From the NCBI GenBank assembly GCA_022565155.1, contig JADFKB010000003.1, positions 2,801 to 66,800 on the forward strand: DNA of 64,000 nucleotides, given 5' to 3'. The notes under the pieces are model-generated. The model was given only the letters and a program-made list of their open reading frames with translations. It had not been told where the DNA came from and ran no database searches. Shown here in pieces: positions 8,249-63,034 of this stretch (positions are counted from its first letter, which is position 1; every line of letters starts with the position of its first letter). Source of the DNA: Chloroflexota bacterium (GTDB lineage Bacteria > Chloroflexota > Dehalococcoidia > DSTF01 > RBG-16-68-14). The position numbers were made by a program, and so were the translations under genes.

Positions 8249-8260
8249 CGCTCGCGCCGC

Positions 8261-9205
8261 TTACGGCTCTTCGCGTGCGTCTGAAGTAAACAACGGACTG
8301 TTCAGTTCCGCCGGCACGATCACCTGCAGCGCCCGGGGCGCGACCTCGATGCGTATCGGCGTCTCCGTTAGGTACTCACCGTCCACCTGCACCGGCAGCC
8401 CAGCCGTCCGCACCTCCAGCGATTCGACCGGCCGGTACCGCACGTGTGCTCGCTGGTGGTGGCGGCGCAGCAGCACCCACGGCAGCAGCCAGGCGATGCG
8501 CGGCAGGCCGCCCTGTTCCAGCAAACAGAAGTCCAGCCGTCCGTCGTCCGCCGCCGCTTGATGCGTCAGGCTGACCAGGCCGGCGTAGCTGCGCGTGTTG
8601 CCCACCAGCAGCCAGTAGAGTGAGGCGGACAGCGGCGCGCCGTCCACCAGCAATTCCACCGCGACCGCCCGGTGGCTGAAGACGCTGCGCGCGCCCTGCA
8701 ACAGATACGCCGCCGCGCCCAGCCTGCGCTTCAGCGCGCCGGACGCCTGGCGTACTATCGACGCGTCGAAGCCGATGCCGGCCATCAGCAGGAAGTACCG
8801 TTCGCTTTCGCCGTCCGCGCCACCACCATACACGGCCCGGCCGAGATCAACGACGCGCCGCTCGCCGGTCGAGAGCAGGCGGACGGCGTCGGCGGGCTTT
8901 CGCGGCAGTTTGATTTCTTTCGACCAGACGTTGGCCGTCCCACCGCGCACGACGGCCATGGCCGTCTGCGAGCCGGCCAGACCGTTCGCCACCTCGTTCA
9001 CCGTGCCGTCGCCGCCGCACGCAACGACGGCGTCCATTCCATTAGCAGCGGCGTCGCGGGCGAGTTCGATCGCGTGGCCGGCCGATTCGGTCTGTGATAT
9101 CGTGGCCTCCCAGCCGTCGAGAGCGTCGATGCCCTCGCGAAGCCATTCGCGCGGCGGCGCGCCGCGGGCGGTAGGGTTCAGAATCAGCAGAGCTCTCTTC
9201 ACCAC
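8261..9205 (-). CDS. diacylglycerol kinase family lipid kinase (YegS/DagK-like)
   Basis: LILNPTARG.., ..VVACGGDGTVNEV.. and a C-terminal DAGK accessory region. Confidence 0.85.
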   Translation of the reverse strand: MVKRALLILNPTARGAPPREWLREGIDALDGWEATISQTESAGHAIELARDAAANGMDAVVACGGDGTVNEVANGLAGSQTAMAVVRGGTANVWSKEIKLPRKPADAVRLLSTGERRVVDLGRAVYGGGADGESERYFLLMAGIGFDASIVRQASGALKRRLGAAAYLLQGARSVFSHRAVAVELLVDGAPLSASLYWLLVGNTRSYAGLVSLTHQAAADDGRLDFCLLEQGGLPRIAWLLPWVLLRRHHQRAHVRYRPVESLEVRTAGLPVQVDGEYLTETPIRIEVAPRALQVIVPAELNSPLFTSDAREEP

Positions 9206-40303: not shown

Positions 40304-40376
40304 GCCCGCGTAGCGCAATGGTAGCGCAGCCGATTTGTAATCGGCAGGTTAGTGGGTTCGAATCCCCTCGCGGGCT
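40304..40376 (+). tRNA. tRNA-Thr (anticodon UGU), CCA encoded downstream
   Basis: Manual cloverleaf: acceptor GCCCGCG/CGCGGGC, D arm GCGC-AATGGTA-GCGC, anticodon arm GCCGA-TTTGTAA-TCGGC, T loop TTCGAAT. There is one U-C mismatch in the T stem. Confidence 0.8.
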
Positions 40377-40390
40377 CCACCACTTCTTAT

Positions 40391-40475
40391 GGAGGGGTGG
40401 GCGAGTGGCTAAAACCGGCGGTCTGTAAAATCGCTGCCCTAACGGGCTACGCAGGTTCGAATCCTGCCCCCTCCA
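40391..40475 (+). tRNA. tRNA-Tyr (anticodon GUA), long variable arm, CCA encoded
   Basis: Acceptor GGAGGGG/CCCCTCC, anticodon loop CTGTAAA, long extra arm, T arm GCAGG-TTCGAAT-CCTGC. Confidence 0.9.
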
Positions 40476-40553
40476 CCAGCGAACATTGACGCCGGGCGTC
40501 GGAAGGGCCAAACTTTAGGAGTAATGAGGCGTCCGGCCTCTGGCGCAATACGC

Positions 40554-40625
40554 GCCCACATAGCTCAGTGGTAGAGCACGCCCTTGGTAAGGGCGAGGTC
40601 ATCGGTTCAAGTCCGATTGTGGGCT
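40554..40625 (+). tRNA. tRNA-Thr (anticodon GGU), CCA encoded
   Basis: Acceptor GCCCACA/TGTGGGC, D arm GCTC-AGTGGTA-GAGC, anticodon arm CGCCC-TTGGTAA-GGGCG, T arm ATCGG-TTCAAGT-CCGAT. Confidence 0.9.
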
Positions 40626-40729
40626 CCAGATATGACAGAGGACGTCACCATAAGAGCGGCGTCCGAATGCGCATGTAGGTGACTCACGTAGGAGTCGCAA
40701 TCGAACGAGGATAAGGAGGAATCGGAACG

Positions 40730-41932
40730 ATGGCCAAGCAGAAGTATGAGCGCACCAAGCCCCATCTCAACGTAGGTACGATCGGACACGTTGACCACGG
40801 GAAAACGACGCTCACGGCGGCCATGACGAAGGTGATGGCGATGAAGGGCTGGGCGTCCTATCGCGACTTTCTGAGCATCGACAACGCGCCGGAGGAGCGC
40901 GAACGTGGTATCACCATCGCCATCGCGCATGTGGAGTACGAGACGGAGAACCGTCACTACGCCCACGTCGACTGCCCCGGCCACGCCGACTACATCAAGA
41001 ACATGATCACCGGTGCCGCCCAGATGGACGGCGCGATTCTCGTTGTCGCCGCTCCGGACGGCCCCATGCCACAGACAAAGGAGCACATCCTGCTCGCCCG
41101 CCAGGTGGAGGTGCCGAGCATGGTCGTCTACATGAACAAGGTAGATATGATGGACGACCCGGAGTTGCTCGACCTCGTCGAGCTGGAACTGCGGGAGTTG
41201 CTCACTAAGTACGAGTTCCCCGGCGATGACATTCCGATCATCCGCGGCAGCGCGCTGAAGGCGCTGGAATCGACGAGCGAAGACCCGGACGCCGAAGAGT
41301 ACAAGAGCATCTGGGAGTTGATGAAGGCGTTGGACGAGTACATCCCGATGCCGAAGCGCGAAAAGGACAAGCCGTTCCTGATGCCCGTCGAGGACGTCTT
41401 CGGCATCAAGGGGCGCGGCACCGTCGTCACCGGCCGTATCGAGCGAGGCGTGATCAACGTCGGTGAAGAGATAGAGATCGTCGGTCTGAAGGACAGTTCC
41501 AAGACCGTCGTCACCGGCGTTGAGATGTTCAAGAAGTTGCTGGATCAGGGCGAGGCGGGCGACAACGTCGGCTGCCTGCTGCGCGGCGTCGAGCGTGACG
41601 ATATTCAGCGCGGGCAGGTGCTCGCCGCTCCCGGCTCGATCACGCCGCACACCTACAGCGAAGCCAAGGTCTATATTCTCTCCAAGGACGAGGGCGGGCG
41701 GCACACGCCGTTCTTCAGCGGCTATCGGCCCCAGTTCTACATCCGCACCACGGACGTCACCGGCGCCATCGAATTGGAAGAGGGTGTGGAGATGGTGATG
41801 CCCGGCGACGATGCCGTCAATATGAAGATCAAGCTGATCCAGCCCGTCGCGATGGAAGAGGGGCTGAAATTCGCTATCCGCGAAGGCAGCCGCACCGTCG
41901 GCGCCGGCGTGTTCACGAGCATTATCGAGTAG
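40730..41932 (+). CDS. tuf: translation elongation factor Tu
   Basis: [31 protein letters not shown].., [12 protein letters not shown]. Confidence 0.98.
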
Positions 41933-46793: not shown

Positions 46794-48159
46794 ATGACGA
46801 TAGATGACGCGGTGATATTAGCGCTGGGTACCGGCTTCACTGGCGCGATTCTTTGGCCGGGTGATGATGCGTATGAAGACGCTCGTAAAGTGCATAACGG
46901 GATGATCGACCGGCGACCGGCGCTCATCGCACGCTGCCTCGGCACCGCTGATGTCGTCGCCGCAGTCAATTTCGCTCGCGAGAACGAGCTCGATGTCGCC
47001 GTCCGTGGCGGCGGCCACAACGTCGCCGGCAACGCGGTCTGCGATGACGGCCTGATGATTGATCTATCGTTGATGAAAGGCATCCATATCGACCCGGACG
47101 CGCGCACGGCGCAGGCGCAGCCGGGCCTGACCTGGGCAGAGTTCAATCGCGAGACGCAGGTACACGGGCTGGCGACGACCGGAGGCTGCTCCACTACAGG
47201 CATCGCCGGGTTGACGCTAGGAGGCGGCCTGGGCTGGTTGATGGGCAAGTACGGCATGACCGGTCGATAACCTTCGCTCGGTCGAGGTGGTGACGGCCAC
47301 AGGCGAAGTGCTGACGGCGAGCGAGCGCGAGCACGCCGATCTGTTCTGGGGCCTGCGCGGTGGCGGCGGCAACTTTGGCATCGCTACGTCGTTCGAATTC
47401 CAACTGCACCCGGTCGGCGAGGTGGTCAGCGGCATCATCGCCCACCCATTCGATAGTGCGCGCGACGTTCTGCGCTTCTATCGAGAGTTCACGGCATCGC
47501 TGCCGGACGAGCTGACGGTCTTCTGCGGGCTGCTGCATGCGCCGGATGGCTCCGGCACGCCTATCGCGGCAATTACCCTCTGTCACTGTGGCTCTCCCGC
47601 TGATGCGGAGGCGGCCGTGCGGCCCGTCAAAGAGTTCGGTTCGCCTATCGTCGATGAGATCGCCCCGAGGAGCTACGAGGTGACGAACACGTTGCTCGAC
47701 GATGGCTTTCCAAAGGGAGCGCTCAACTACTGGAAGTCGAGCTTTTTGAACGAGTTGAGCGATGAGGCGATCGATACGTTGATCGCGCGGTTCAGCACCT
47801 GCCCCTCGCCGATGAGCGCTCTGTTGTTAGAGCACTTCCACGGTAGTGCTACACGCGTGGGGCAGACGGACACTGCCTTCCCGCACCGGCAGATCGGCTA
47901 CAACCTCCTCATCGTATCGGAATGGCAGGACGCAGCAGACTCCGATGCGAACATCACGTGGGCGCGGGAGACGTACGACGCGATGCGACCGCAGATGGCC
48001 GGCGGCAGGTATGTGAACTACCTCGGCGAGGAGGAGGGCGAGGATTCGGTCGCAGCGGCCTATGGGCCGAACTACCAGCGGCTGCGTGCGCTCAAGGACA
48101 CCTACGATCCGCAGAACCTGTTCCACATGAACCAGAACATTCCTCCCAGCGCGCGGTGA
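46794..48159 (+). pseudogene. FAD-linked (FAD_binding_4 plus BBE-like) oxidase disrupted by a +1 frameshift near 47260..47264
   Basis: ORF 46794..47270 ends ..GGGLGWLMGKYGMTGR*. Shifting one frame at acc-g-gtc gives ..[42 protein letters not shown].., continuous with ORF 47287..48159 and with the family consensus G(L/M)TxDNL..VVTA.G. Confidence 0.75.
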
Positions 48160-48238: not shown

Positions 48239-48544
48239 TCATGTCCGCGGCTTTTCTCTGGGCGATCCAGCGACCTGGTGCGCACGGCGGGGACCGTCAT
48301 CATTGGCGGTCGGCGTGAACTCGGTCTCGCACGCTGCCTCCGCACGGCGGCGCACGAAGACGGCGGCCGCTCCGGCGAACAGAAGCACGGCGAGGAACCC
48401 AGCGGCGATCGCTAGGCCGGGCTCCGAAAGCGCGGAGCCGATCACGGACAACGCGCCCGTGCCGATGCCAGCCCCGACAAGGAGCACAAGGAGGCAGGGG
48501 AGACAGATCGCCAGACCCACTATAGCTGTCACGCTGGACCGCAC
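48239..48544 (-). CDS. small two-TM membrane protein with an intramembrane CxxC (CLPC); possible thiophilic-metal (Hg) uptake protein
   Basis: (GTG)MRSSVTAIVGLAICLPCLLVLLVGAG.., SD GAGGTGA. It lies in the mer-like island. The functional call rests only on analogy to the Cys pairs in MerT/MerC/MerF TM1. Confidence 0.55.
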   Translation of the reverse strand: MRSSVTAIVGLAICLPCLLVLLVGAGIGTGALSVIGSALSEPGLAIAAGFLAVLLFAGAAAVFVRRRAEAACETEFTPTANDDGPRRAHQVAGSPREKPRT

Positions 48545-48634
48545 GGCGTCACCTCATTTCATGCACATGGCGCTACGTCGTTGTACTAGAGCCGAGCTTT
48601 TCCTCTGCATCCTTGCGGTACAGGACGCCGATGA
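48455..48634. repeat. 180-bp direct repeat, copy A (paralog of 49945..50124)
   Basis: Covers the last roughly 20 codons of a CBS-domain gene (..LIGVLYRKDAEEKLGSSTTT*), the intergenic SD region and the first 30 codons of the CLPC membrane gene. About 90% identical to copy B by eye. Confidence 0.8.
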
Positions 48635-48698
48635 GTGGTGCCAGCAAATGCTCGAACTCCCAATAGCGATTCACGTTTCCTACCAAACGAAACTTTCC

Positions 48699-49799
48699 TC
48701 ACACCCTTCGACCGTCACGCAAAACCACCGATGCGGCACCGCTTACCAAGATCACAGACCCGGCGCCGACGAGAAGCCATAGTGTCCACAACGGGATCGC
48801 GCCACCGCCGGACGAACCGCCTGTGCCGGCCGATGGAAGGTCCGGCGCAGGCTCTGGCACGCCTCGGGGAAAACCAAGGAAGCCTGCCGGGAACTCACAC
48901 ACCAGAGCTATCGGGTGTGGGATCCCCAGTGGGTTTGGCAACGGCTCTTCAAGCGTTACCGTCTCGTCTACGACGAGAATGTGCACCTGGAAGGCCGGAA
49001 TTGGCGCTCCTTCCGCGGTTGGCGCGAGAGATACGTGCGAGCTGACCGCACCGTCCGAGTCGGTGGTCACTGGATACGATGTGGAATCGAGAGTCACGGT
49101 GCCGTCGAGACCGGCCGCCATGACGTACAGCACGTAGTCGTGGTCAGGGAGCAGGTCCGTAGCGGTCACGTCCGCCTCAAAGCTGCTACCCCTGCCATCC
49201 CAAGTGAACGAGCCGCCTCCACCGTCGAACTCGGGCGCAAAGCCGAGGTTGACCAGAGCGATTTCATCGTCGTTCTCGACCGGCAGCGCGGAGCCAGGCT
49301 CTGCCACACGGAAACCGAGTGGGAACTCACAGGCTAGCGGCACCCCGAACTCGACACCGAGCGGGTTGGGCAGCGGCTCCTCGACCGGCTGGGACGTATC
49401 GACGATGAGGAAGTGCACCTGGTAGGCTGGAATACCTTCGCCCGCCGGCAACTCCAGGGTCACTTCAGTCGAACCAGCGCCGTTTGCGTCCGTCGTGATC
49501 GCGAAGCTAGTACTATCGCTCGTTGTCGTGCCGTCTACGCCGATACCCATGACCGTGACACCGTACTCGTGGTTCGGGAGCAGGTCGTCCACCTCAACAG
49601 TCGCTTCAAAGGGGTCGTTCAGCCCTTCGTAAGTGATCGAGCCACTGCCACCTTCAAAGCCCGGCGCCCAGCCAAAGTTCTGAAGCGGTACTGAACGTGC
49701 TCCTGGCCCATCCTGGGCTAATCCGGCGCCGCTCGCGAGGCCGAAGCCTATGACGGCGAGAACCATCACTATCGTGATTCGTAGACTTGTCTTGAGCAT
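48699..49799 (-). CDS. secreted protein with two tandem roughly 150-aa repeats and a C-terminal sorting-signal-like anchor
   Basis: Signal peptide MLKTSLRITIVMVLAVIGFGLASGAGLA. Repeats NFGWAPGFEGGSGSITYEG..ACEFPLGF and NLGFAPEFDGGGGSFTWDG..VCEFPAGF. C-terminus is LPSAGTGG, then a hydrophobic helix, then RDGRRV. ATG 49799 is preceded by GGAGG. The track start 49865 is probably an over-extension. Confidence 0.7.
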   Translation of the reverse strand: MLKTSLRITIVMVLAVIGFGLASGAGLAQDGPGARSVPLQNFGWAPGFEGGSGSITYEGLNDPFEATVEVDDLLPNHEYGVTVMGIGVDGTTTSDSTSFAITTDANGAGSTEVTLELPAGEGIPAYQVHFLIVDTSQPVEEPLPNPLGVEFGVPLACEFPLGFRVAEPGSALPVENDDEIALVNLGFAPEFDGGGGSFTWDGRGSSFEADVTATDLLPDHDYVLYVMAAGLDGTVTLDSTSYPVTTDSDGAVSSHVSLAPTAEGAPIPAFQVHILVVDETVTLEEPLPNPLGIPHPIALVCEFPAGFLGFPRGVPEPAPDLPSAGTGGSSGGGAIPLWTLWLLVGAGSVILVSGAASVVLRDGRRV

Positions 49800-49854
49800 G
49801 GTGCTGCCTCCTTCTCTCCGGTGAATGTCCCTCCTGCAGGGGTCTCTCCTTCGG

Positions 49855-50034
49855 CTACTCAACACAGCAGCTTATCACACTGATGTCCCTGACGACCGAC
49901 TGTGCGGCGAGCTTGATCGCTTCGCTCATCCTTGGGAAAACGTGGCCCGTGCCGATGCCGGCCCCAACAAGGAGCACGAGGAGGCAGGGGAGACAGATCG
50001 CCAGACCCACTATAGCTGTAACGCTGGACCGCAC
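49855..50034 (-). pseudogene. chimeric remnant: the first 30 codons of a CLPC membrane gene fused in frame to the last 29 codons of a merA paralog
   Basis: Own translation: MRSSVTAIVGLAICLPCLLVLLVGAGIGTG|HVFPRMSEAIKLAAQSVVRDISVISCCVE*. Compare the MerA C-terminus ..[29 protein letters not shown] at 52268. Confidence 0.6.
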
Positions 50035-50124
50035 GGCGTCACCTCATTTCTTGCACGTGGAGCTACGTTGTTGTACTAGAGCCGAGCTTTTCCTCAGCAT
50101 CCTGGCGGTACAGGATGCCGAGGA
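49945..50124. repeat. 180-bp direct repeat, copy B (paralog of 48455..48634)
   Basis: See copy A. The offset between the copies is 1490 bp. Confidence 0.8.
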
Positions 50125-50551
50125 GCCGGCCGGTGGATGTGGTGACAAGGATACTGCCCACTCGCATCGCTCGCATATGCTCCATATACTCTTTCAGAGG
50201 AATGTCTGGGCGAATCGTCGTTGGGCCCGCCTCCATCACTGATTCGACTGACATGTCGGCGTCACCTTCCAGTGCCTCGCCCCGAATGCGCCCGAGCACC
50301 ACGCCATTCTCGGTGGTAACAACGCACACGTTCTGCCCCGCTGCCCTCGCGCGTTCCTGCGCGTCGCCCAGCCGCTCTGTTAGGCGGCAGGTAGGCGTGT
50401 CCTGGCGCACCACGTCACCCGCCCGCAGGACGGATGCAAGTCTACCTTCCGTCGGCAGCCCGTTCGCCGTCCAGTCGGCAAGGCCTGCGACGTAGTCGTA
50501 GATCGGTGTGAAGCCTAGACTCTCGAGCCGGCACGCGGCTCGCGGACTCAT
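50063..50551 (-). CDS. C-terminal third of a rhodanese domain followed by a CBS pair; in frame with the ORF at 50570..50761
   Basis: MSPRAACRLESLGF..YVAGLADWTANGLP (rhodanese C-terminal part), then two CBS motifs (..VCVVTTENGVVLGRI.., ..ILVTTSTGRLLGILY..). Confidence 0.7.
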   Translation of the reverse strand: MSPRAACRLESLGFTPIYDYVAGLADWTANGLPTEGRLASVLRAGDVVRQDTPTCRLTERLGDAQERARAAGQNVCVVTTENGVVLGRIRGEALEGDADMSVESVMEAGPTTIRPDIPLKEYMEHMRAMRVGSILVTTSTGRLLGILYRQDAEEKLGSSTTT

Positions 50552-50569
50552 GTCTCATTGATTATCCGC

Positions 50570-50761
50570 TCAGTAGACGACAACGGCGCGGTTTCGGTCC
50601 AGGGTGCTGGCCGTCGCAGCCGCATCCAAGCTCTTCGGTGGGAGGAAGATCGCTCCGGCAATGTGTTGTCCCTGGAATTCCGCGTCGGGCCGAACATCGA
50701 CGAGCTGCGCTCCTTCAGCCACCAACTCCTGCACCCGTTCCCGGGAAATGTCGGTTGGCAT
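50570..50761 (-). CDS. N-terminal two-thirds of a rhodanese domain, ending at a TGA in the catalytic-Cys position
   Basis: MPTDISRERVQELVAEGAQLVDVRPDAEFQGQHIAGAIFLP..LDRNRAVVVY-TGA. SD GGAGGAG is upstream. Confidence 0.7.
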   Translation of the reverse strand: MPTDISRERVQELVAEGAQLVDVRPDAEFQGQHIAGAIFLPPKSLDAAATASTLDRNRAVVVY

Positions 50762-50817
50762 TTCTCCTCCTCTAGTTGAGATGACTCTAATTAGTCGCCA
50801 GGAGATTCTGATCAGAA

Positions 50818-51066
50818 CTAGCTGAACGAGATAGCGTCGGCTGCCGTGACCGTGGTGCCGGAGCGCATCTTCTCAGGCAGCGCTTCCTGCACGGCCTCGG
50901 CGTTCGCGGCCTCGACGACGAAATAGCCGCCGTGATCCCCGCTCGGGCAGGTGCAATAGATGGACACCTCCCGCAGTAGCGGCCCGGCGTTCTTGAGATC
51001 GTCAAAAACCGCCTGGCATTCCTCCGCTTGATGTTTGTGGACGGCGACGTAGCTCGGCATGGTCAT
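50818..51066 (-). CDS. small Cys/His-containing protein of unknown function
   Basis: 82 aa: ..YVAVHKHQAEECQAVFDDL..IYCTCPSGDHGGYFVVEA..LPEKMRSGTTV.. It recalls a small uncharacterised actinobacterial family with the pattern H.H....C ... C..G.H. It lies between arsR and the rhodanese gene. Confidence 0.6.
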   Translation of the reverse strand: MTMPSYVAVHKHQAEECQAVFDDLKNAGPLLREVSIYCTCPSGDHGGYFVVEAANAEAVQEALPEKMRSGTTVTAADAISFS

Positions 51067-51074
51067 ATTCCTCC

Positions 51075-51434
51075 TTAGATTGCAGCTGTCTCTTCGTTCA
51101 GGCGAAGACAGGAGGCAACGGCCTCCGCGTTGTCAGCCATGACCGTGCGGGCGAGATCGATAAGCTCGAACACACGATGATCGGTAATGCGGTAGTAGAT
51201 GAACTTGCCTTCCCGCCGGGTGCCAATGTAACCGCACCAGCGCAGACAGCCCAGATGGCTGCTTACTCGAGCCTGTGGTACGCCCAGGCGCTGCACCAGT
51301 TCGGAGACGTTCTTTTCCCCCTCTAGCAGCAATTCGATGATGCGAACGCGGGTGGGATCTGCCAACACTTGAAAGAATCGAGTGACAAGATCTACCTCAA
51401 GTTCGTAAGGGGTTGCAGTTGTCATAGCAATCAT
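51075..51434 (-). CDS. ArsR/SmtB family transcriptional regulator, copy 1
   Basis: ..FFQVLADPTRVRIIELLLEGEKNVSELVQRLGVPQARVSSHLGCLRWCGY.. About 95% nucleotide identity to copy 2 (53697..54050) by eye. Confidence 0.85.
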   Translation of the reverse strand: MIAMTTATPYELEVDLVTRFFQVLADPTRVRIIELLLEGEKNVSELVQRLGVPQARVSSHLGCLRWCGYIGTRREGKFIYYRITDHRVFELIDLARTVMADNAEAVASCLRLNEETAAI

Positions 51435-51445
51435 ATCTGATCGTA

Positions 51446-51474
51446 AAGATATATTGAATTTGGCACCTTGTCAA
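51446..51474 (-). promoter_or_regulatory. promoter of arsR copy 1 with an overlapping inverted repeat
   Basis: Minus strand reads TTGACA (51474..51469), 17 nt, then TATCTT (51451..51446). ATATCT-N8-AGATAT (51433..51452) spans the -10 and the start codon, leaving a very short or no leader. Confidence 0.5.
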
Positions 51475-51631
51475 GAGCGTCGTTGGTACTGAAGCGCTTT
51501 CGCGGCGGCTATCCGGTACGCGGATGAGACAAGCACCTGCGTCATGCCGTGATATAATGCCCGCGTCCCATGGAATCGGACTGGATCGCTTCGCTGCTCG
51601 CGCCTGCTGGCTCAGTGAAGAGGAGTCGCTG

Positions 51632-51902
51632 ATGACAGACCGCAAGTACGTCTATCTCTTCCCAGAAGGCGATAAGGACCAGAAGGATCTGCTGGGCGGC
51701 AAAGGCGCCAACCTGGCGGAGATGACTAACCTGGGCCTTCCCGTTCCCCCCGGCTTCACCATCACCACCCAGGCCTGCAACGACTACATCCAAGGCGGCA
51801 CGACGATGCCGGAAGGGCTGCTGGATCAGGTGCAATCGGCGCTGCGGCAGGTGGAGGAGCAGACGGGCAAGAGCCTGGGCGATCCAGAACGGCCGCTGCT
51901 CG
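51632..51902 (+). pseudogene. 5' fragment (90 codons) of a duplicated ppdK, truncated at a recombination junction
   Basis: MTDRKYVYLFPEGDKDQKDLLGGKGANLAEM..GDPERPLL is about 98% identical in nucleotides to 54248..54518. Homology stops at ..gctgctcg (51902), where rhodanese-derived sequence begins. Confidence 0.85.
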
Positions 51903-51929
51903 CGGACTCATGTCTCATTGATTATCCGC

Positions 51930-52121
51930 TCAGTAGACGACGACTGCTCTGCTTCGGTCGAGGGCGTTGTCTGTAGTAGCCGTGTCCAAGGCCTTCAGTG
52001 GGAGGCTGATCGCTCCGACGATTCGCTGTCCCTGGTACTCCGCGTCGGGCCGAACATCGACGAGTTGCGCTCCTTCTTGCACGAGGCGTTGGACGTCTTC
52101 CCTAACAATATCCGTAGGCAT
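51930..52121 (-). pseudogene. second, diverged copy of the rhodanese N-terminal part, truncated after the TGA-containing junction
   Basis: MPTDIVREDVQRLVQEGAQLVDVRPDAEYQGQRIVGAISLP..LDRSRAVVVY-TGA. Downstream only ..ADNQ-TGA-DMSPR remains before the ppdK fragment. Confidence 0.7.
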
Positions 52122-52267
52122 CACGCATTCCTTTCGTTCTGGCGGAACGTAGATTCTAGAGGCCATCGACGTGAGATATTGATGCACTGCCCGAACATTA
52201 GTAAACTCCTTCCCTGGCTAGTGAACTCTGCCCAGCAGGTCTCCCGTTCTCTGCACGAGTCGGCCCT

Positions 52268-53680
52268 CTACTCGATGCAGCAGCTCATCACGCTGATGTC
52301 GCGAACGAAGGCCTGCGCGGCGAGCTTGATACCCTCACTCATCGTCGGGAAGACGTGCACGGTGTCGATGATGTCGTCGACGGTGAGGCCGAACTTCACG
52401 GCGAGGACCGCCTCGTGAATCAGGTCCGCCGCGTCAGGCGCCACCATGTGCACGCCCAGGATTTTGCTGGACTCCGGGTGGATGACCATCTTGATCAGGC
52501 CACGCTCCTCCTTGATAGCCTTCGCCTTCGGGATGCGCGAGACTTCGACCGTCCGGCAGGCGCAAGCGTTGTAGCGTCGCATCTCCTCCTCCTCCGTCAG
52601 GCCGACGGTCGCGACCTGCGGGTTAGTAAAAACGGCAGCCGGGATCGTGTCGTAGTCGATCGTCCGCTTCGCGTTTTCGAAGGCGTTGGCGGTAGCGATC
52701 ATCCCTTCCTTGGCGGCCAGCGCCTCAAGGAACATCTTTCCGGCCACGTCCCCTGCTGCGTAGACGTTTGGCACCGATGTCTCCATGTGTTCGTTTACCT
52801 CGATGAAGCCACGCTTGTTGATGATCACGCCGGCCGCCTCCAAGCCCATGTCGTCCGAGTTGGGGACTACACCAGTGGCGAGAAGGAGCTGGTCGGCCTG
52901 AAAGATCCGCTTCTCGCCCATTACGTCTGCCTCCACGAACCTGGTCTCGCCCTGCTGCCAGACGCGCTCGATATTGCAGGCGCAATGGATCTCCATGCCC
53001 TCAGCTTCCAGTGTCCGCTGGAGCTCGTCGGCGATTTCTGGCTCGGTGCGGGGGAGGATCTGCGGGATCTTCTCCAGCACCGTCACCTTGGTGCCGAAGT
53101 GGAGGAACATCTGCCCGAGCTCGAGCCCGATAGGGCCAGCGCCGATGACGATCATCGAATCGGGCAGCGCCTCCAGATCCATCACCTCCCGATTGGTGAC
53201 GTACTGAACGCCTTCGATGCCAGTAAACGGCAGGATAGACGGGCGGGTGCCGGTGGCGACGAGGAACTTCTCAGCGGTCAGGCGCTGGCCGTTCACTTCC
53301 ACCTCTTCGGGCGAGACGAACCGTGCGCGCCCTTCGATGTATTCGACGTCGCGCAGGCTGGCGAGCACATCCGTGTAGTTGGACTCCCGAAGTGCTCCAA
53401 CCAGCCGCTGCTTCTCGTCGATGGCGGTTTTGAAGTCGAACGCTGAGTTGTGCCCGTTCTTCAAGGCATCGAAATTAGATCTTTGAGGATAGAAGTACTC
53501 GTCACCAACCGCGAGAAGGTGTTTGCTGGGAACGCAGCCGACGTTCACGCAGGTGCCGCCAACGGGAAGGCCATCGTTGATCATGGCTATGCGCAAGCCT
53601 AGCTCCGAGGCTTTGGTCGCGGCAGCGAAGGCGCCTGCCCCAGCGCCGATGATGATGAAGTCGTACTGATCCGTGGTCAT
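52268..53680 (-). CDS. merA: mercuric reductase (core MerA without the N-terminal NmerA metal-binding domain)
   Basis: FAD GxGxxG (IIIGAGAGAF), redox-active GGTCVNVGCVPSK, and C-terminal ..FPTMSEGIKLAAQAF.RDISVMSCCIE with the vicinal Cys pair that distinguishes MerA from other disulfide reductases. Confidence 0.85.
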   Translation of the reverse strand: MTTDQYDFIIIGAGAGAFAAATKASELGLRIAMINDGLPVGGTCVNVGCVPSKHLLAVGDEYFYPQRSNFDALKNGHNSAFDFKTAIDEKQRLVGALRESNYTDVLASLRDVEYIEGRARFVSPEEVEVNGQRLTAEKFLVATGTRPSILPFTGIEGVQYVTNREVMDLEALPDSMIVIGAGPIGLELGQMFLHFGTKVTVLEKIPQILPRTEPEIADELQRTLEAEGMEIHCACNIERVWQQGETRFVEADVMGEKRIFQADQLLLATGVVPNSDDMGLEAAGVIINKRGFIEVNEHMETSVPNVYAAGDVAGKMFLEALAAKEGMIATANAFENAKRTIDYDTIPAAVFTNPQVATVGLTEEEEMRRYNACACRTVEVSRIPKAKAIKEERGLIKMVIHPESSKILGVHMVAPDAADLIHEAVLAVKFGLTVDDIIDTVHVFPTMSEGIKLAAQAFVRDISVMSCCIE

Positions 53681-53696
53681 TGCGGGGACTCCCTTC

Positions 53697-54050
53697 TTAC
53701 GAGATCTCTTCGTTCAGGCGGAGGCAAGACTTCACGGCCTCCGCGTTGTCAGCCATGACCGTGCGGGCGAGATCGATGAGCTCGGACACACGACGATCGG
53801 TAATGCGGTAGTAGATGAACTTGCCTTCCCGCCGGGTGCCGATGTAGCCGCACCAGCGCAGACAGCCCAGGTGGCTGCTTACCCGAGCCTGTGGTACGCC
53901 CAGACGTTGCACCAGTTCGGAGACGTTCTTTTCCCCCTCTAGCAGCAATTCGATGATGCGAACGCGGGTGGGATCTGCCAAAACTTGAAAGAATCGAGTG
54001 ACAAGATCTACCTCAAGTTCGTACGTGGTTGCGGTCGTTATAGTAGTCAT
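53697..54050 (-). CDS. ArsR/SmtB family transcriptional regulator, copy 2 (probable mer operon repressor)
   Basis: Near-identical to copy 1. First gene of the arsR-merA-rhodanese' operon, divergent from ppdK. Confidence 0.85.
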   Translation of the reverse strand: MTTITTATTYELEVDLVTRFFQVLADPTRVRIIELLLEGEKNVSELVQRLGVPQARVSSHLGCLRWCGYIGTRREGKFIYYRITDRRVSELIDLARTVMADNAEAVKSCLRLNEEIS

Positions 54051-54061
54051 ATCTGATTTAA

Positions 54062-54090
54062 AGGATATATTAATATTGGCATCTTGTCAA
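54062..54090 (-). promoter_or_regulatory. promoter of arsR copy 2 / merA operon
   Basis: Minus strand reads TTGACA (54090..54085), 17 nt, then TATCCT (54067..54062). The inverted repeat ATATC-N10-GATAT overlaps the start region. Confidence 0.45.
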
Positions 54091-54165
54091 GAGCGCCGTT
54101 GGTGCTGAAGCGCTTTCGTAGCGGCAATCCGGTACACGGATAAGACAAGCACCCGCGTCGTGCCG

Positions 54166-54174
54166 TGATATAAT
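54166..54174 (+). promoter_or_regulatory. extended -10 promoter element for ppdK
   Basis: TGaTATAAT (TG at 54166..54167, TATAAT at 54169..54174), about 74 nt upstream of the ppdK ATG. The identical element is duplicated at 51550..51558. Confidence 0.45.
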
Positions 54175-54247
54175 GCCCGCGTCCCATGGAATCGGACTGG
54201 ATCGCTTCGCTGCTCGCGCCTGCTGGCTCAGTGAAGAGGAGTCGCTG

Positions 54248-57200
54248 ATGACAGACCGCAAGTACGTCTATCTCTTCCCAGAGGGGGATAGAGACCAGAA
54301 GGATCTGCTGGGCGGTAAGGGCGCCAACCTGGCGGAGATGACTAACCTGGGCCTTCCCGTTCCCCCCGGCTTCACCATCACCACCCAGGCCTGCAACGAC
54401 TACATCCAAGGCGGCACGACGATGCCGGAAGGGCTGCTGGATCAGGTGCAATCGGCGCTGCGGCAGGTGGAGGAGCAGACGGGCAAGAGCCTGGGCGATC
54501 CAGAACGGCCGCTGCTCGTCTCCGTCCGCTCCGGCGCGAAGTTCTCCATGCCCGGCATGATGGACACGATCTTGGACCTGGGCCTGAACGACGCGACGTT
54601 GCAAGGGCTGATCGCGGCGACAGGCGACGCCCGCTTCGGCTACGACTCGCTCCGTCGCTTCATCATGATGTACGGCGACATCGTCCTCTCCATCGACCGG
54701 CGCAAGTTCGATGCGATCTTCGAGGAAGCGAAAGAGAAGGCGGGCGTCGATGACGACGCTGATCTGCCCGCGGATGCGCTGCAGAAGGTCGTCACGCAGT
54801 TCCGCGCGCTCGTGCGGCAGGAACGGGGCTCCGATTTCCCGGACGACCCGATGCAGCAGTTGGAGCTGGCGATCCGCGCGGTGTTCGATTCCTGGAACAA
54901 CGAGCGCGCTGTCCACTACCGCAAGATCGAGAACATCCCGGACGACCTCGGTACCGCCGTCAACGTCCAGGCGATGGTCTTCGGTAACATGGGCGGCGAT
55001 TCCGGCTCCGGCGTCGCCTTCACGCGCGATCCGGTATCCGGCGAGCGCACCATCTGGGGCGAGTACATGGCGAACGCCCAGGGCGAGGACGTCGTCTCCG
55101 GCATCCGCACGCCGATGCCGATCGCCGCGCTGAAAGAGGAGAACCGCGCCCTCTACGACGAGTTCGCCGCCGTCGCGGAGAAGCTTGACCTGCACTATCG
55201 CGACGCCATGGACATCGAGTTCACCGTGGAGCAAGGGAAGCTCTACATGCTCCAGTGCCGCGTCGGCAAGCGAACGACGCGCGCCGCCGTCACCATCGCC
55301 GTCGATATGGTGCACGAAGGGCTGATTAGTAAAGAGGAGGCCGTGCTGCGCGTCGCGCCGAACCGGCTCGATGAGCTGCTCCACCCCCAGCTCGACCCGG
55401 GCGTCCAGACTGTGCCGCTGGCGGAGATCGGATCCCAGGCGGCGCAGGCGGCGCGAGGCCGGGCGGAGATGATCTTCACCATCCCCGAGCGGGGCGTCGA
55501 GCGGCTGCGCAAGGTCGGTGCGCTGCCGACGGCGGCGCTGCTCAGCTTCGCCGGCGCGCGCGCGCTCGGCACGCTGCGCGTCGCGGACTGGCGCGATATG
55601 GACGAAGAGCAGCGCGCAGCGTTCCTGCAGGAGGCGCGCTTCCTGGAGATGGCGCAAGGACTGGCCGCATCGCCCGGCGCGGCCGCTGGCGCGTCCGTCT
55701 TCGATCCGGACACAGCGGCCAAGCTCGGCCACGAAGGCAAGGACGTGATCCTCGTGAGAAAGGAGACGTCGCCGGACGATATCCACGGGATGCAAGCCTC
55801 CCGCGGCGTGCTGACGCAGCGCGGCGGCATGTCCAGCCACGCGGCCCTGGTCGCGCGCGGCTTCGGCATCCCCTGTGTCAGCGGCTGCGAGGCGATCGAC
55901 GTCGACGAGAGCCGCCGCTCCATGCGCGTCGGCGAGCTTGACGTCTCCGAAGGCCAGCTGATCACCATCGATGGCTCCAGCGGCCGCGTGCTGCTTGGCC
56001 TGATCCCGTCGGTTGAAGCGGAGCTGTTCCCGAAGTTTACCGAGTTCCTCTCCTGGGCCGACGACATTCGCCGCTTGGGCGTCCGCACGAACGCCGACAC
56101 GCCGCAGGACGCCGCCAAGGCCGTCGAGTTCGGCGCGGAGGGCATAGGCCTCTGCCGGACGGAGCACATGTTCCTGGAGAAAGACCGGCTGCCCGTCGTG
56201 CGCGAGATGATCCTCGCCGCCGCCCAGGCGAAGGCGCTGGAGGCCGATGTGCTGGCGCTCGACAAGGAGCACGCCGCTGCGGAAGGCGAGCAGCGGCAGC
56301 GGCTGGAGGAGCGGCTTTCGGAGCTGCGCGGCCGGTTGGAAGGCCCGATGGGCAAGTACCGCGGCTCGCTCGACCGCCTCGAGCCGATGCAGCAGAGCGA
56401 CTTCGAGGCGATCTTCCGGGTGCTGGGCGGCCGTCCGGTCACCATCCGCCTGATCGACCCGCCGATGCACGAGTTTCTGCCGGACCACGACGAGCTGCTC
56501 GAATCGGTCGCTCGCCTGCGCGTCTCCGCGCCGCAGTCGCCGGAGCTGCGGGAGAAGGAGACGTTGCTGCGCCAGGTAGACGCCCTGCGCGAGGTGAACC
56601 CGATGCTCGGTCTGCGCGGCTGCCGGCTGGGCATCCTCTACCCGGAAGTGAACGAGATGCAGGTGCGCGCCATCTTCCGCGCCGCGGCGACGGTAACGAG
56701 AGACGGTGTGCAGGTGCAGCCAGAGGTGATGATTCCGCTCGTCGGCTTTGCGAGCGAGTTGAAGCGGCTGCGGTCGCTGCTGGAGCGCGTCGCAAGGGAC
56801 ACCATGCAGGAGGAAGACGTGGAGGTGCCGTACCTGTTCGGCACGATGATCGAGCTGCCGCGCGCCGCACTGACCGCGGGCGAGATCGCCGGCGAAGCGG
56901 AGTTCTTCTCGTTCGGCACGAACGATCTGACGCAGACAACGCTGGGCTTCAGCCGCGATGACGCCGAGGCGAGCTTCCTCAGCCACTACCTGGACGAGGG
57001 GATATTGGCCGACAACCCGTTCGAGACGATCGACCAGGCCGGCGTCGGCGCGCTCGTGCGGCAGGCGGTGAAAGAGGGGCGTAAAGCGCGCCCGAACCTG
57101 AAACTCGGTATCTGCGGCGAACACGGCGGCGACCCGCGCTCGATCGAGTTTTTTCACCAGGCTGGCCTCGACTACGTGAGCTGCTCGCCCTACCGCGTGC

Positions 57201-60025: not shown

Positions 60026-61870
60026 CTACTCCACCGTCACGGTCTTCGCCAGGTTGCGGGGCTGGTCCACGTCGCAGCCGCGCCAGACGGCGATGTGGTA
60101 GGCCAGCAACTGTAGCGGCACGACCGTGAGCAGCGGCAGCAGCAGCCGCGACGTCTCCGGCACCTCGATCACGTGGTCAACCGTCTTCGCCAGCTCCGTA
60201 TCGCCTTCGCTGACGACGGCGATCACGATGCCGTCGCGCGCCTTCACCTGCTCGATGTTCGAGCGCATCTTCTCGCGCATGCCGTCGCGGACGGCGATCG
60301 CCACCACCGGCATCGTCTCGTCGATTAGCGCGATCGGCCCGTGCTTCATCTCGCCCGCCGGATAGCCCTCGGCGTGGATGTAGCTCAACTCCTTCAGCTT
60401 CAGCGCCCCCTCCATCGCCACCGGGTACTGGAGGCCGCGGCCGAGGAAGAGGAAGTGGCGGTAGCGGTGAAACTCGTGGGCGAGCTGATCCAGCGCGTCC
60501 GATTTCTGCAGGACGCGGCCGAGCAGGTCCGGTATGTGGGCCAACGGCTCGATCAGCTCCGCCAGCTTCGTATCGTCCAGGCGGCCGCGTAGCTGGCCTA
60601 GTCGGCAAGCGAGCAGGTAGAGCGCGGTGATCGATGCCGTCAGCGTCTTGCTGCTCGCCACGCCGATCTCCGGCCCGCAGCGCGTGTAGAGCGTCCCCTC
60701 CGCGATGCGCGTCGACTGCGCGCCCGGCGTGTTGCAGATGGTGATCTGGGGCGAACCGGCGCGCTGCGCCTCGTGCATCGCCTCCAGCGTATCGACCGTC
60801 TCGCCCGACTGCGCGACCGAGATGACGAGCGTCTCCGGCCCGACCAGCGCGCGCCGGTAGCGAAACTCGGAGGCGTTATCGACCTCGGCCGGCAACCCGG
60901 CCAGCTCCTCGAAGTAGTGGCGGCCGACCATCGCGGCGTGGAGGCTGGTGCCCATCGCCACGAGCACGACGCGTTCTATTGATTGCAGCGTCGCGTCCGG
61001 GATTTCCAGGTCGGCCAGATCGATGGTGTCGGAATCGAATAGCACGCGGCCGCGGAATGTATCCAGCACGCACTCCGGCTGCTCCATGATCTCTTTGAGC
61101 ATGAAGTGCTTGTACGTGCCCTTCGCCGCCGCGACGGGGTCGAGCGGCACGGTCTGGGGCGACTTGTCTATCGACTGACCGTCCGCGTCCCAGTAGCGTA
61201 CGCCCTCGCGGTTCAACTCGACGATCTCGCCGTCGGCGAGGAAGGCGACGTCGCGCGTCTCAGGCAGCAACGCCGGCAGGTCGCTGGCGAGGAAGTGCTC
61301 GTTCCGGCCGTAGCCGATGACGATGCCGCCGGCGTTGCCGACGCGCGCGGCGACGATGCGGTCCGGCTGGCTTCGGGAGAAGACGACGATCGCCTGCGAG
61401 CCATCCAGGCGCTTGATCGTCCGGCGCAGCGCCTCGTGCAGATCCTCGGTCTCCTGCAGGTACATCTCGATCAGGTGGGCCAACACCTCGGTGTCTGTCT
61501 CCGAGGAGAGGCCGTGGCCCTGGGCCATCAGCTCCTGGCCCAGCTCCAGGTAGTTCTCGATGATGCCGTTATGCACCACGGCTACGTCCCCGGTGCAGTC
61601 CAGGTGCGGGTGGGCGTTCTCGTCGGAGGGCTTGCCGTGGGTGGCCCAGCGCGTGTGGGCGACGCCCACGGTGCCGGGCGGGTAGACGCCCTCCAGGCTG
61701 GCCATCAGGTTGGCCAGTTTGCCGGTGTGCTTCTTCAGGTGCAGGTTGCCGTCGCTATCGCCGACGGCGATGCCGGCGCTATCGTAGCCCCGGTACTCCA
61801 GCCGTTGCAGCCCTTCTATCAGTAGGGGCGCGGCCTCCCGCGTGCCTACGTAGCCGATGATGCCGCACAT
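60026..61870 (-). CDS. glmS: glutamine--fructose-6-phosphate aminotransferase (isomerising)
   Basis: MCGIIGYVG.. Ntn amidotransferase N-terminus, two SIS domains, C-terminal ..LAKTVTVE. Confidence 0.97.
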   Translation of the reverse strand: MCGIIGYVGTREAAPLLIEGLQRLEYRGYDSAGIAVGDSDGNLHLKKHTGKLANLMASLEGVYPPGTVGVAHTRWATHGKPSDENAHPHLDCTGDVAVVHNGIIENYLELGQELMAQGHGLSSETDTEVLAHLIEMYLQETEDLHEALRRTIKRLDGSQAIVVFSRSQPDRIVAARVGNAGGIVIGYGRNEHFLASDLPALLPETRDVAFLADGEIVELNREGVRYWDADGQSIDKSPQTVPLDPVAAAKGTYKHFMLKEIMEQPECVLDTFRGRVLFDSDTIDLADLEIPDATLQSIERVVLVAMGTSLHAAMVGRHYFEELAGLPAEVDNASEFRYRRALVGPETLVISVAQSGETVDTLEAMHEAQRAGSPQITICNTPGAQSTRIAEGTLYTRCGPEIGVASSKTLTASITALYLLACRLGQLRGRLDDTKLAELIEPLAHIPDLLGRVLQKSDALDQLAHEFHRYRHFLFLGRGLQYPVAMEGALKLKELSYIHAEGYPAGEMKHGPIALIDETMPVVAIAVRDGMREKMRSNIEQVKARDGIVIAVVSEGDTELAKTVDHVIEVPETSRLLLPLLTVVPLQLLAYHIAVWRGCDVDQPRNLAKTVTVE

Positions 61871-61984: not shown

Positions 61985-62138
61985 GGCGTTCCCCTGGCAC
62001 GCTGGACGGATTTTGTCAGGGACTCGCATCCCAGATTTGTACCGCCCATGACGACTGTACAGCCGGGAGGCCACCCGCCGAATGGTTCGATCGACCTCCT
62101 CCTCGTCATCCTTCCCGTATGGGAAGGACCTGGCGCTT
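61985..62138 (-). ncRNA. glmS ribozyme (GlcN6P-dependent self-cleaving riboswitch) in the glmS 5' leader
   Basis: Minus strand: A|GCGCCAGG-UCCUUCCC-AUAC-GGGAAGGA-UGACGAGGAGGAGGUCGAUCGAACCAUUCGGCGGGUGGCCUCCCGGCUG.. This matches the conserved glmS core as I recall it (AGCGCC cleavage site, GACGAGGA.GGAGGU.AUCGAA..UUCGGCGG.UG.CUCCCGGCUG). The 3' boundary is approximate. Confidence 0.85.
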
Positions 62139-62146
62139 AGGTTGCT

Positions 62147-63034
62147 CTATTGCTCCGCGGCGTCGTTCGTATCACCTCCTTGCGGCGCGAGCTTCTCTAG
62201 TCGCGCTACCACCGCGTCGATCGCGGCGTCCGGCGTCGAGGCGCCGGCCGTGACGCCGACGCGCTCTCGTCCCTCTAGCCACTCTCGCTCGATTTCATCC
62301 GCTGACTCAATCTGGTGCGCCTCTACGCCTTCTTCGCGCGCCACCGCCGCCAGATGCCTGGTATTGGCGCTCTCCCGCCCGCCGATGACGATCATTAGGT
62401 CGACCTTGTTCGCCAATTCCTGCGCTGCCGCCTGCTGGCTGGTGGTAGCGTTGCAGAGCGTGTTGATCACCCGCAGCTCGCTGATGCGGTCCATGCGCCG
62501 CTCCAAGAGCGCTCGCACAAACTCAGCGAAGTGCGCCTCCGTCTCAGTGGTCTGCGACAGCACGCCCAGCCGCGTCGGTAGTTCGTCGGGCAGTGTATCG
62601 ATCTCGGCGATGCTGGGAATGGCGTAGGCTTTGCCATCGGCCCAGCCGAGCACGCCACGCGTCTCCTTGTGGTTTGGGTCACCAAAAACGATGACCGCAA
62701 AGCCCTCTTCAGTGAGCCGCTTCGCCCACTGCTGGGAGCGCGTGACGATGGGACAGGTGGTATCGAGGACGGAGACGCCGCGGTCCTCCAGCTCCCGCAC
62801 GACCGATTCGCTGACGCCGTGCGCCGTGATGGCGACGGGCCGGTCGGTTACCTGCTCCAGCGAGGCGATGACGTCCAGTCCCTTCTCCTTCAGTTGCGCT
62901 ACCACCTGCGGGTTGTGGACAACGGAGCCGAGGCTATCGATCTCGCCCGTCTGATCCGTGGCGTCCTCCATCATCTCGACGGCGCGGCGCACGCCGAAGC
63001 AGAAGCCCATCTCGCTGGCGAGAAGAATCTCCAT
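62147..63034 (-). CDS. ispH: 4-hydroxy-3-methylbut-2-enyl diphosphate reductase
   Basis: MEILLASEMGFCFGVRRAV.., ..VHNP.V.., ..TCP.V.., ..NTLCNAT.. (three Fe-S Cys). Confidence 0.95.
   Translation of the reverse strand: MEILLASEMGFCFGVRRAVEMMEDATDQTGEIDSLGSVVHNPQVVAQLKEKGLDVIASLEQVTDRPVAITAHGVSESVVRELEDRGVSVLDTTCPIVTRSQQWAKRLTEEGFAVIVFGDPNHKETRGVLGWADGKAYAIPSIAEIDTLPDELPTRLGVLSQTTETEAHFAEFVRALLERRMDRISELRVINTLCNATTSQQAAAQELANKVDLMIVIGGRESANTRHLAAVAREEGVEAHQIESADEIEREWLEGRERVGVTAGASTPDAAIDAVVARLEKLAPQGGDTNDAAEQ

Follow-up and report, generated by a model that had tools for sequence, protein, structure and literature searches.

A rhodanese–CBS gene with two in-frame TGA codons in a Chloroflexota mer region and its predicted selenoprotein family

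The minus strand of a 64,000-nucleotide stretch of DNA from a Chloroflexota bacterium (assembly GCA_022565155.1, contig JADFKB010000003.1; the whole stretch is called the window below) contains a reading frame that runs from ATG at position 50761 to TAG at 50063 and is broken only by two TGA codons, at 50570-50572 and at 50555-50557. The mRNA-sense text at this place is GTC GTC TAC TGA GCG GAT AAT CAA TGA GAC ATG AGT CCG, the ATG being at 50551-50549. The frame (50063..50761; 232 codons plus TAG) is preceded by a Shine-Dalgarno-like GGAGG (50766..50770, minus strand), read from the sequence, 4 nt upstream of ATG 50761, and it is callable only as two open reading frames (ORFs) of 63 and 162 amino acids. 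Do the TGA codons separate two genes, do they mark a gene that has been lost, or do they specify selenocysteine (Sec) in a single protein? A preliminary description of this DNA had drawn attention to both TGAs, to a hairpin downstream of them and to the common frame of the ORFs 50570..50761 and 50063..50551. All of these are present in the window, and ORF translation confirmed the frame. We have good confidence that both window UGAs are Sec codons of one 232-residue protein composed of a rhodanese domain and a CBS pair, a proposal derived from sequence comparison. In this protein, Sec would take the place of the rhodanese catalytic Cys, and another Sec would follow five residues on, within the loop Y-U-ADNQ-U-DMSPRAA.

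The two TGA columns in the rhodanese–CBS family

The domain composition of the putative protein was evident from Pfam searches, which matched Rhodanese (PF00581) to residues 8-99 (59.4 bits, gathering threshold 22.2) and CBS (PF00571) to residues 172-221 (37.8 bits, gathering threshold 24). The first TGA (50570..50572, minus strand; proposed Sec64) aligned to the catalytic Cys of solved rhodaneses (6mxv), with a loop two residues longer in the window family. As structural model we used the AlphaFold model of P0037, a homologue containing Cys (predicted local distance difference test score, pLDDT, 86.6). In this model a strand (residues 60-63), a loop (64-71) and a helix (72-81) form the classical rhodanese active-site cradle, which holds both TGA columns; a split at the TGAs would therefore cut one domain through its active site. 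C-terminal to the rhodanese domain lies a CBS pair, which could be superposed on many solved CBS pairs, e.g. 6uof (target-normalised TM-score 0.85, root mean square deviation 1.7 Å). Within the CBS part, Thr124-Cys125 was invariant in both protein alignments (12 and 28 sequences), and Cys146 was invariant among the 12 aligned sequences and nearly so among the 28; judged from these alignments, Cys125 and Cys146 could be resolving or metal-binding residues.

Codons at the two columns were counted in 81 genes: the two window copies (the gene described above, copy A, and a truncated paralogue, copy B) and 79 loci from a scan with one genome per species, in which tblastn covered residues 1-226 in one frame. 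The loci belong to Chloroflexota (Dehalococcoidia, Anaerolineae, Thermomicrobiales, Chloroflexia), Actinomycetota, Dormiibacterota and Methylomirabilota/Rokubacteria. The second column (50555..50557 in copy A, minus strand; proposed Sec69) was TGA in 81/81 genes, and TAA or TAG was found in none. At the first column, that of the catalytic Cys, these TGA-form genes alternate between TGA (19) and Cys codons (TGC 52, TGT 10) only. The spacer between the columns is four codons long in every gene; in copy A it is GCG GAT AAT CAA (50558..50569, minus strand), encoding Ala-Asp-Asn-Gln.

With the fused ORF as query, 1503 proteins were matched, and the best 120 of them include 115 'CBS' proteins of 138-175 amino acids. 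These short proteins span only about two-thirds of the query, and 7/7 of those aligned start at MSPRAA, directly past the second TGA. Full-length homologues with Cys at both columns (C-x4-C) were also found, namely P0037 (Y-C-YDYQ-C-VMSPRAA) and P0100 (Y-C-WDAL-C-DMSPRAA), together with P0059, which has Cys at the first column only (Trp at the second), and P0065, which has it at the second only. In the alignment with rhodanese–CBS homologues that the preliminary description had envisaged, Cys occupies both columns in P0037 and P0100. L079 (U..U) and L087/L109 (C..C) share the HDGL spacer; they are too diverged for blastn and constitute a loose Sec/Cys pair only.

For comparison, a set of Cys-form genes was collected with a fully degenerate pattern from 74 metagenome loci (58 distinct), all with TGY at the second column. 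TGA at the first position was confined to genes having TGA at the second (19/81 vs 0/74, p=1.6e-6). In a neighbour-joining tree the genes with first-position TGA fell into three groups, one of which is a clade of 14 members whose identity to the window protein, in the regions aligned, is 40-72%. Conservation of the first TGA across so diverged a clade indicates that it has been retained for a long time. In the clade with the ADNQ spacer the spacer codons vary synonymously only (GCG/GCT, GAC/GAT, AAC/AAT, CAG/CAA). Such variation suggests that the spacer is translated, and its translation requires decoding of the first UGA. The best conserved stretch of the protein is that of residues 64-80, which straddles both TGAs (94-100% identical, vs 55-84% elsewhere).

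These results modify the earlier picture in two respects. Sec had been proposed at the position of the catalytic Cys, and in this window a TGA does stand there; across the family, however, the constant Sec column would be the second (81/81), the first being Cys in ~77% and TGA in ~23% of the genes. The additional two residues of the loop had been taken to weaken the Sec reading. This objection does not hold, as the longer loop is a constant trait of the family (C/U-x4-U/C-D-[ML]-S). We hold with high confidence that the second UGA is a Sec codon family-wide, and with reasonable confidence that the first UGA is one.

The hairpin downstream of the TGA codons

Twelve nt after the second TGA begins a hairpin, CGAGCCG-CGUGC-CGGCUCG (50524..50542, minus strand), with a perfect 7-bp stem and a 5-nt loop. 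Its minimum free energy (MFE) is -11.0 kcal/mol, and the start of its loop is 34 nt away from the first UGA and 19 nt away from the second. In the published model of the bacterial Sec insertion sequence (bSECIS), a stem of 4-16 bp carries a loop of 3-9 nt with G and then G/U in the first loop positions (PMC13188914), the distance from the UGA is 16-37 nt and the MFE is <= -7.5 kcal/mol (PMC13188914, summarising Zhang and Gladyshev 2005). The window hairpin agrees with all four parts of this model for both UGAs, its loop CGUGC containing G followed by U. The spacing close to that of bacterial SECIS elements, pointed out in the preliminary description, was thereby borne out at both distances.

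More informative was the use of synonymous codons in the hairpin. In the TGA genes the hairpin codons are nearly frozen (Ala GCC 80/80, Ala GCG 77/80, Arg CGG 79/80, Leu CTC 75/79), and the preceding Arg is encoded by CGR/AGR only, its purine pairing with the U of CUC. The four-fold degenerate codons flanking the hairpin vary freely in these genes (entropy H 1.5-2.2 bits). In the Cys genes the same hairpin residues are encoded by mixed codons (H 1.2-2.1, CGC and CGT included). The 6-bp inner stem was intact in 78/80 TGA genes vs 22/58 Cys-form genes with the same amino acids (Fisher 1e-15), and loop position 2 was G in 77/80 vs 35/58. Comparison with the flanking codons served as an internal control for relatedness and codon bias. 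This analysis of codon use shows that the hairpin is selectively maintained only in the TGA-containing genes. Retrieval bias was considered as a source of the frozen codons and was rejected, since neighbouring positions in the same loci display all codon classes of Arg, Ser and Leu. Folding of the 96-nt region by itself was no better than that of shuffled sequences (z = -0.06), which makes single-sequence folding uninformative in GC-rich DNA such as this.

A second, weaker hairpin, GCGGAU/GUCCGC (50542..50569, minus strand), begins directly downstream of the first UGA and has the second within it; a function in recoding can be postulated for it. The helix is formed between the spacer and the Ser-Pro codons, and its mean energy was -9.05 kcal/mol in genes of the U-x4-U type, -5.35 in C-x4-U and -5.73 in C-x4-C genes, i.e. 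it was significantly more stable in the double-TGA genes than in the single-TGA or the Cys genes. Its register differs by clade: genes with the ADNQ spacer have GCGGAY/GUCCGC, those with MDGL/HDGL have GGGCUC/GAGCCC or GGACUC/GAGUCC. In the MDGL/HDGL helix, covariation at synonymous sites was seen (GGG..AGC to GGA..AGU). Besides the window, the extra helix is listed for L011, L012, L025, L028, L029, L042 and L049. Its relevance to decoding is suggestive only.

According to the mechanism we propose, the hairpin at 50524-50542 would act as a bacterial SECIS and be bound by SelB·GTP·Sec-tRNASec. Both UGAs lie within reach of its loop (34 nt for the first, 19 nt for the second), so that a single element can act on the two, and the extra upstream helix of double-UGA genes may aid their decoding.

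Decoding capacity and rival explanations

Genes for Sec synthesis and insertion were sought by tblastn with E. coli SelA, SelB and SelD in the window and in 1.45 Mb of family loci, and three matches were obtained. The window match to SelB (40772-41782; 27.6% identity to the GTPase part) lies just after a cluster of tRNA-Thr/Tyr/Thr genes (40304-40628, plus strand) and is, from its sequence and position, probably the translational GTPase EF-Tu and not SelB. The match in L153 is a weak one to SelB (119 residues, E 7e-6). The third was found in L070, the metagenome-assembled genome (MAG) of an actinomycetote: a selD homologue (7435-8484, minus strand; 42.6% identity to E. coli SelD), 1.5 kb upstream of the rhodanese–CBS gene. 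At the column of the catalytic Cys17 this selD reads TGA in frame (SHGAG-TGA-ACK), which is the known Sec-containing form of SelD, so that at least this host decodes Sec. The Sec reading offered in the preliminary description is thus supported by the TGA-only conservation, the Cys/TGA pairs at both columns, the TGA-linked hairpin, the translated spacer and the Sec-SelD of L070. From the same evidence we infer that Sec is actually inserted in the organism studied here.

Reassignment of the genetic code was also considered and was rejected. TGA terminates up to 7/33 long open frames of the window with high G+C at third codon positions (one of them, the frame ending at 54049, is antisense to ppdK and is probably not a gene), in agreement with the earlier statement that TGA is a normal stop in this DNA. 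Among window ORFs of at least 300 codons the stop codons were TAG in 17, TAA in 9 and TGA in 7 cases, so that TGA is the rarest despite a GC content of 65%. In high-GC bacteria TGA is not normally the rarest stop codon, and the window shows the opposite.

The history of the region has to be taken into account as well. Copy B (51898..52121, minus strand; TGAs at 51930-51932 and 51915-51917) is a remnant that retains the N-terminal rhodanese part; at 51897/51898 a rearrangement has joined it to a duplicated 5' fragment of ppdK. Across this junction a plus-strand ORF (51524-51976) encodes ppdK residues up to ..PERPLL and continues into the antisense of the rhodanese block. The identity of a 44-nt block between the two copies amid diverged flanks, described before, was confirmed: 50538-50581 is 100% identical to 51898-51941, and the flanks are ~72-77% identical (77% over the surrounding 250 nt). 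The block stops at 51898 because copy B is cut there by the ppdK junction. The identity would mostly be due to the extreme conservation of this segment combined with truncation of copy B at its 3' edge, and the shared synonymous variants GAT, AAT and CAA suggest common descent or gene conversion. The whole mer region (48239-54550) is a mosaic of duplicated pieces of ArsR, the merA 3' end and small membrane proteins. ArsR and the 5' end of ppdK are duplicated (51089-51388 vs 53705-54004, 94%; ppdK' fragment 51524-51897), a minus-strand ORF (49855-50034) is chimeric, with the N-terminus of a CLPC membrane protein fused to the merA 3' end, and 48545-48635 resembles the 3' end of a third rhodanese–CBS copy (93% to 49945-50125).

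Several observations weigh against the Sec proposal. The single-sequence match to the bSECIS model is weak, since 6-10% of the 1546 TGA trinucleotides in this 65% GC window also pass the hairpin criteria; significance therefore rests on the comparison with other genes, not on the window by itself. In that comparison, the Fisher p-values assume more independence than phylogenetically related sequences have, although the flanking-codon control is internal. The stem variants are all of the compatible kind (A-U to G·U, G-C to G·U), with no double compensatory changes, and the stem is kept in 22/58 Cys genes, partly because its codons are the preferred GC-rich ones. An Rfam search at gathering and permissive thresholds matched no SECIS family. 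ARAGORN found no tRNA-Sec in the 64-kb window or in 93 loci; there is no selA or selB in the window or in the fetched flanks, no selD in the window, and no sel genes on the contigs of near-identical organisms (L159-L161). As the mer region is a mosaic, copy A could be a recent, unexpressed arrival. The metal chemistry considered below draws only on selenol chemistry and on the gene neighbourhood, ArsR or MerA-like genes being nearby in about 29% of the loci.

The most conventional interpretation of the locus is that of two separate genes, one for a 63-residue rhodanese fragment that stops at the first TGA, the other for a CBS protein of 162 residues with ATG 50551 as its start codon, whose translation may be coupled to that of the fragment. 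The short database proteins that begin at MSPRAA would fit it, as would the ATG found two codons after the second TGA in 58/81 genes, and one family locus (L156, 9791-10510) is annotated as exactly such a split. In 10 genes, however, CTC, CTA, CTT or ATC replaces this ATG, which indicates that the downstream half cannot, as a rule, have a translation start of its own. Each Cys homologue is one continuous polypeptide, and the split would fall within the active-site loop of one rhodanese domain. An untranslated gap needs neither a fixed length of four codons nor conserved amino acids nor synonymous-only changes, and two genes would leave unexplained both the absence of TAA and TAG and the linkage of the hairpin to TGA. 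We regard two separate genes as most improbable.

It is also conceivable that the family consists of selenoproteins but that the window copy is non-functional, either a relic or the result of transfer of the mer island into a host lacking Sec. The rearranged state of the region (truncated copy B, chimeric ORF 49855-50034, duplicated ArsR and ppdK 5' end), the lack of Sec genes and tRNA-Sec within the 64-kb window and a possibly frameshifted BBE oxidase in the same window are compatible with such a fate. Copy A, on the other hand, is intact across its 232 codons, with no frameshift and no extra stop; it has the Shine-Dalgarno sequence and a perfect 7-bp hairpin, it is 71% (N-terminal part) and 69% (CBS part) identical to L001, and many assemblies contain nearly identical ORFs for its C-terminal part (P0001 cluster, 32 members). 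We consider loss of function unlikely. Finally, the UGAs might be read through without Sec, by near-cognate Trp or Cys insertion or by a local suppressor, or might be regulated stops with the hairpin as a pausing or attenuation element. Sec insertion is itself deduced from sequence, the hairpin had no Rfam match, and the upstream helix around the second UGA might cause pausing. Against this, Cys at both columns in homologues is the classical Sec/Cys signature, the hairpin fits bSECIS geometry and loop motif, the gene is present in a host with Sec-SelD (L070) and TGA is an ordinary stop elsewhere in the window. Non-Sec read-through or a regulated stop is thus very unlikely, and the Sec reading was preferred.

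Gene neighbourhood and relation to known systems

Copy A is the last gene of a minus-strand string headed by an ArsR/SmtB metalloregulator (51075..51434; NF033788, 90 bits, cutoff 55), with an 82-amino-acid ORF (50818..51066) between the two that has a CTCPSGDHG motif and no Pfam or NCBIfam match. Copy B belongs to a second string on the same strand, ArsR–MerA–copy B. In it a second ArsR/SmtB regulator (53697..54050), which carries the 94% duplication of 51089-51388, is followed by a 470-residue MerA mercury(II) reductase (52268..53680; TIGR02053, 548 bits, cutoff 454) immediately upstream of copy B. No N-terminal HMA domain was found among the Pfam matches of this MerA. Within 7 kb of the family gene, ArsR was present in 18/79 loci and a MerA-like gene in 14/79; most of the 79 loci are without mer genes or are on short contigs. 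The order ArsR–MerA–rhodanese–CBS recurs in L032, L045, L054 and L075, and L007, a short contig, shows only MerA immediately upstream. Among the double-TGA loci, ArsR lies ~0.3-0.7 kb upstream of the gene start in 7/17. Further neighbours at family loci are MerB, ArsM-like and TPMT/TehB-type methyltransferases.

Some other features of the window were recorded. A 101-residue membrane protein with a CLPCLL motif (48239-48544, minus strand) had no Pfam or NCBIfam match; CLPCLL-motif ORFs that cluster with one another adjoin the family gene in 6 other loci, and tblastn with the window protein matched none of these. The 101- and 82-residue ORFs are candidate uncharacterised mer accessory genes. The BBE/FAD-linked oxidase mentioned above (46794-48159, plus strand) is in two ORFs in different frames (46794-47270 and 47287-48159), which could reflect a frameshift, a pseudogene or an assembly error. 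A glmS ribozyme (61993-62148, minus strand; 91 bits) lies upstream of glmS (60026-61870). This ribozyme and the tRNA cluster are housekeeping features, indicating that the island sits in the chromosome.

Five rhodanese selenoprotein forms are distinguished in a 2026 review (UxxS, UxxG, CxU, UxxG and the UxxxxU of TsoB; PMC13188914), and in all of them, as proposed for the window protein, Sec lies within the active-site region of a rhodanese domain. Neither a CBS fusion nor a CxxxxU motif is among the rhodanese selenoproteins of that review, and the rhodanese–CBS family is not described in earlier selenoprotein surveys or in the Haft preprint. In NCBIfam release 20 no model, curated selenoprotein models included, was passed by the window protein; the best scores were those for the MoeB rhodanese domain (49.5 bits), ChrE (45.9/120), TsoB (43.3/805) and rhodanese_LYCAU (38.1/115, score/cutoff in bits). 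In forms 2 and 4, Sec occupies the column of the catalytic Cys, as the first TGA does here. The CxU form (rhodanese_LYCAU, NF041203) differs in motif from the C/U-x4-U of the present family; in Olavius symbionts it has a UxU variant (PMC1976440), an earlier case of a rhodanese in which a second Sec evolved next to an existing one. TsoB (NF045694) has two Sec with the same UxxxxU spacing as the window protein, but is a rhodanese/DsbD fusion of 572 positions: the window protein matches its rhodanese part only (residues 17-112), lacks a DsbD-like region and has the CBS pair instead. Form 1 (UxxS, WP_010941598.1) is set apart from the window family by its motif description, not by alignment. ChrE (NF033833), GlpE, PspE, YgaP, 6mxv and 3ilm share the fold and the catalytic Cys column past the central beta-strand, but differ in a loop shorter by two residues (C-x4-R-S type) and in lacking both a Cys/Sec at +5 and a CBS pair.

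The putative SECIS is, as in the bSECIS model, an in-frame stem-loop downstream of the UGA; here one hairpin would serve two UGAs 15 nt apart. Its sequence hardly changes over four phyla, an uncommon trait among bSECIS elements and one that, as a sequence pattern, suggests horizontal spread. Predicted selenoproteins linked to metals include a MerT-like transporter, a UxxU 'putative mercuric reductase', MerB-like SaoL-type proteins, HgcA/HgcB and MbdU (PMC13188914; bioRxiv 10.1101/2022.07.06.499078). These likewise have Sec in a soft-metal ligand pair and metal(loid)-resistance neighbourhoods, but they differ in fold and lineage from the present family, which occurs in Chloroflexota, Actinomycetota, Dormiibacterota and Methylomirabilota and has canonical MerA and an ArsR-type regulator as partners.

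As to function, the Cys/Sec–Sec pair may form a selenenylsulfide or diselenide, or may bind a soft metal(loid) such as Hg(II) or As/Se species, within resistance operons under ArsR control; the CBS pair would be a regulatory module that senses nucleotides. A role in metal(loid) resistance is what we infer from the neighbouring genes. A more specific version, which we put forward as a speculation and consider rather doubtful, is that the family is a working part of ArsR-regulated mer operons in Chloroflexota, Actinomycetota and related phyla, and that the pair (Sec–Sec in the window protein), held out by the expanded rhodanese loop, binds Hg(II) in the form S–Hg–Se or Se–Hg–Se. The metal would then be handed to MerA or made inert as HgSe, and the CBS pair would gate the process by binding adenine nucleotides. 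If this were true, the classical MerA detoxification pathway would have its first selenoprotein. Antagonism between mercury and selenium has long been known; a Cys/Sec–Sec pair beside MerA would tie selenium use to mercury resistance at the level of genes and offer a testable entry to this antagonism.

Public gene calls split the family into 63-residue 'Rhodanese' and ~160-170-residue 'CBS' ORFs, and none of the best 120 matches was a full-length entry containing U, which indicates that the family has gone unnoticed as a selenoprotein in the annotation sources. If the Sec reading is correct, hundreds of 'CBS domain-containing protein' entries (158-171 amino acids) and 63-residue 'rhodanese' ORFs would be halves of one selenoprotein, and annotation pipelines would require a model for the family. 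The family would then represent a sixth, apparently uncurated, rhodanese-type selenoprotein form, and predicted selenoproteins would extend to Chloroflexota, Dormiibacterota and Methylomirabilota MAGs. With one SECIS hairpin serving its two UGAs, helped by a second, clade-specific helix, and nearly invariant in four phyla, the family would provide a natural system for studying how a single hairpin can recode two closely spaced UGAs.

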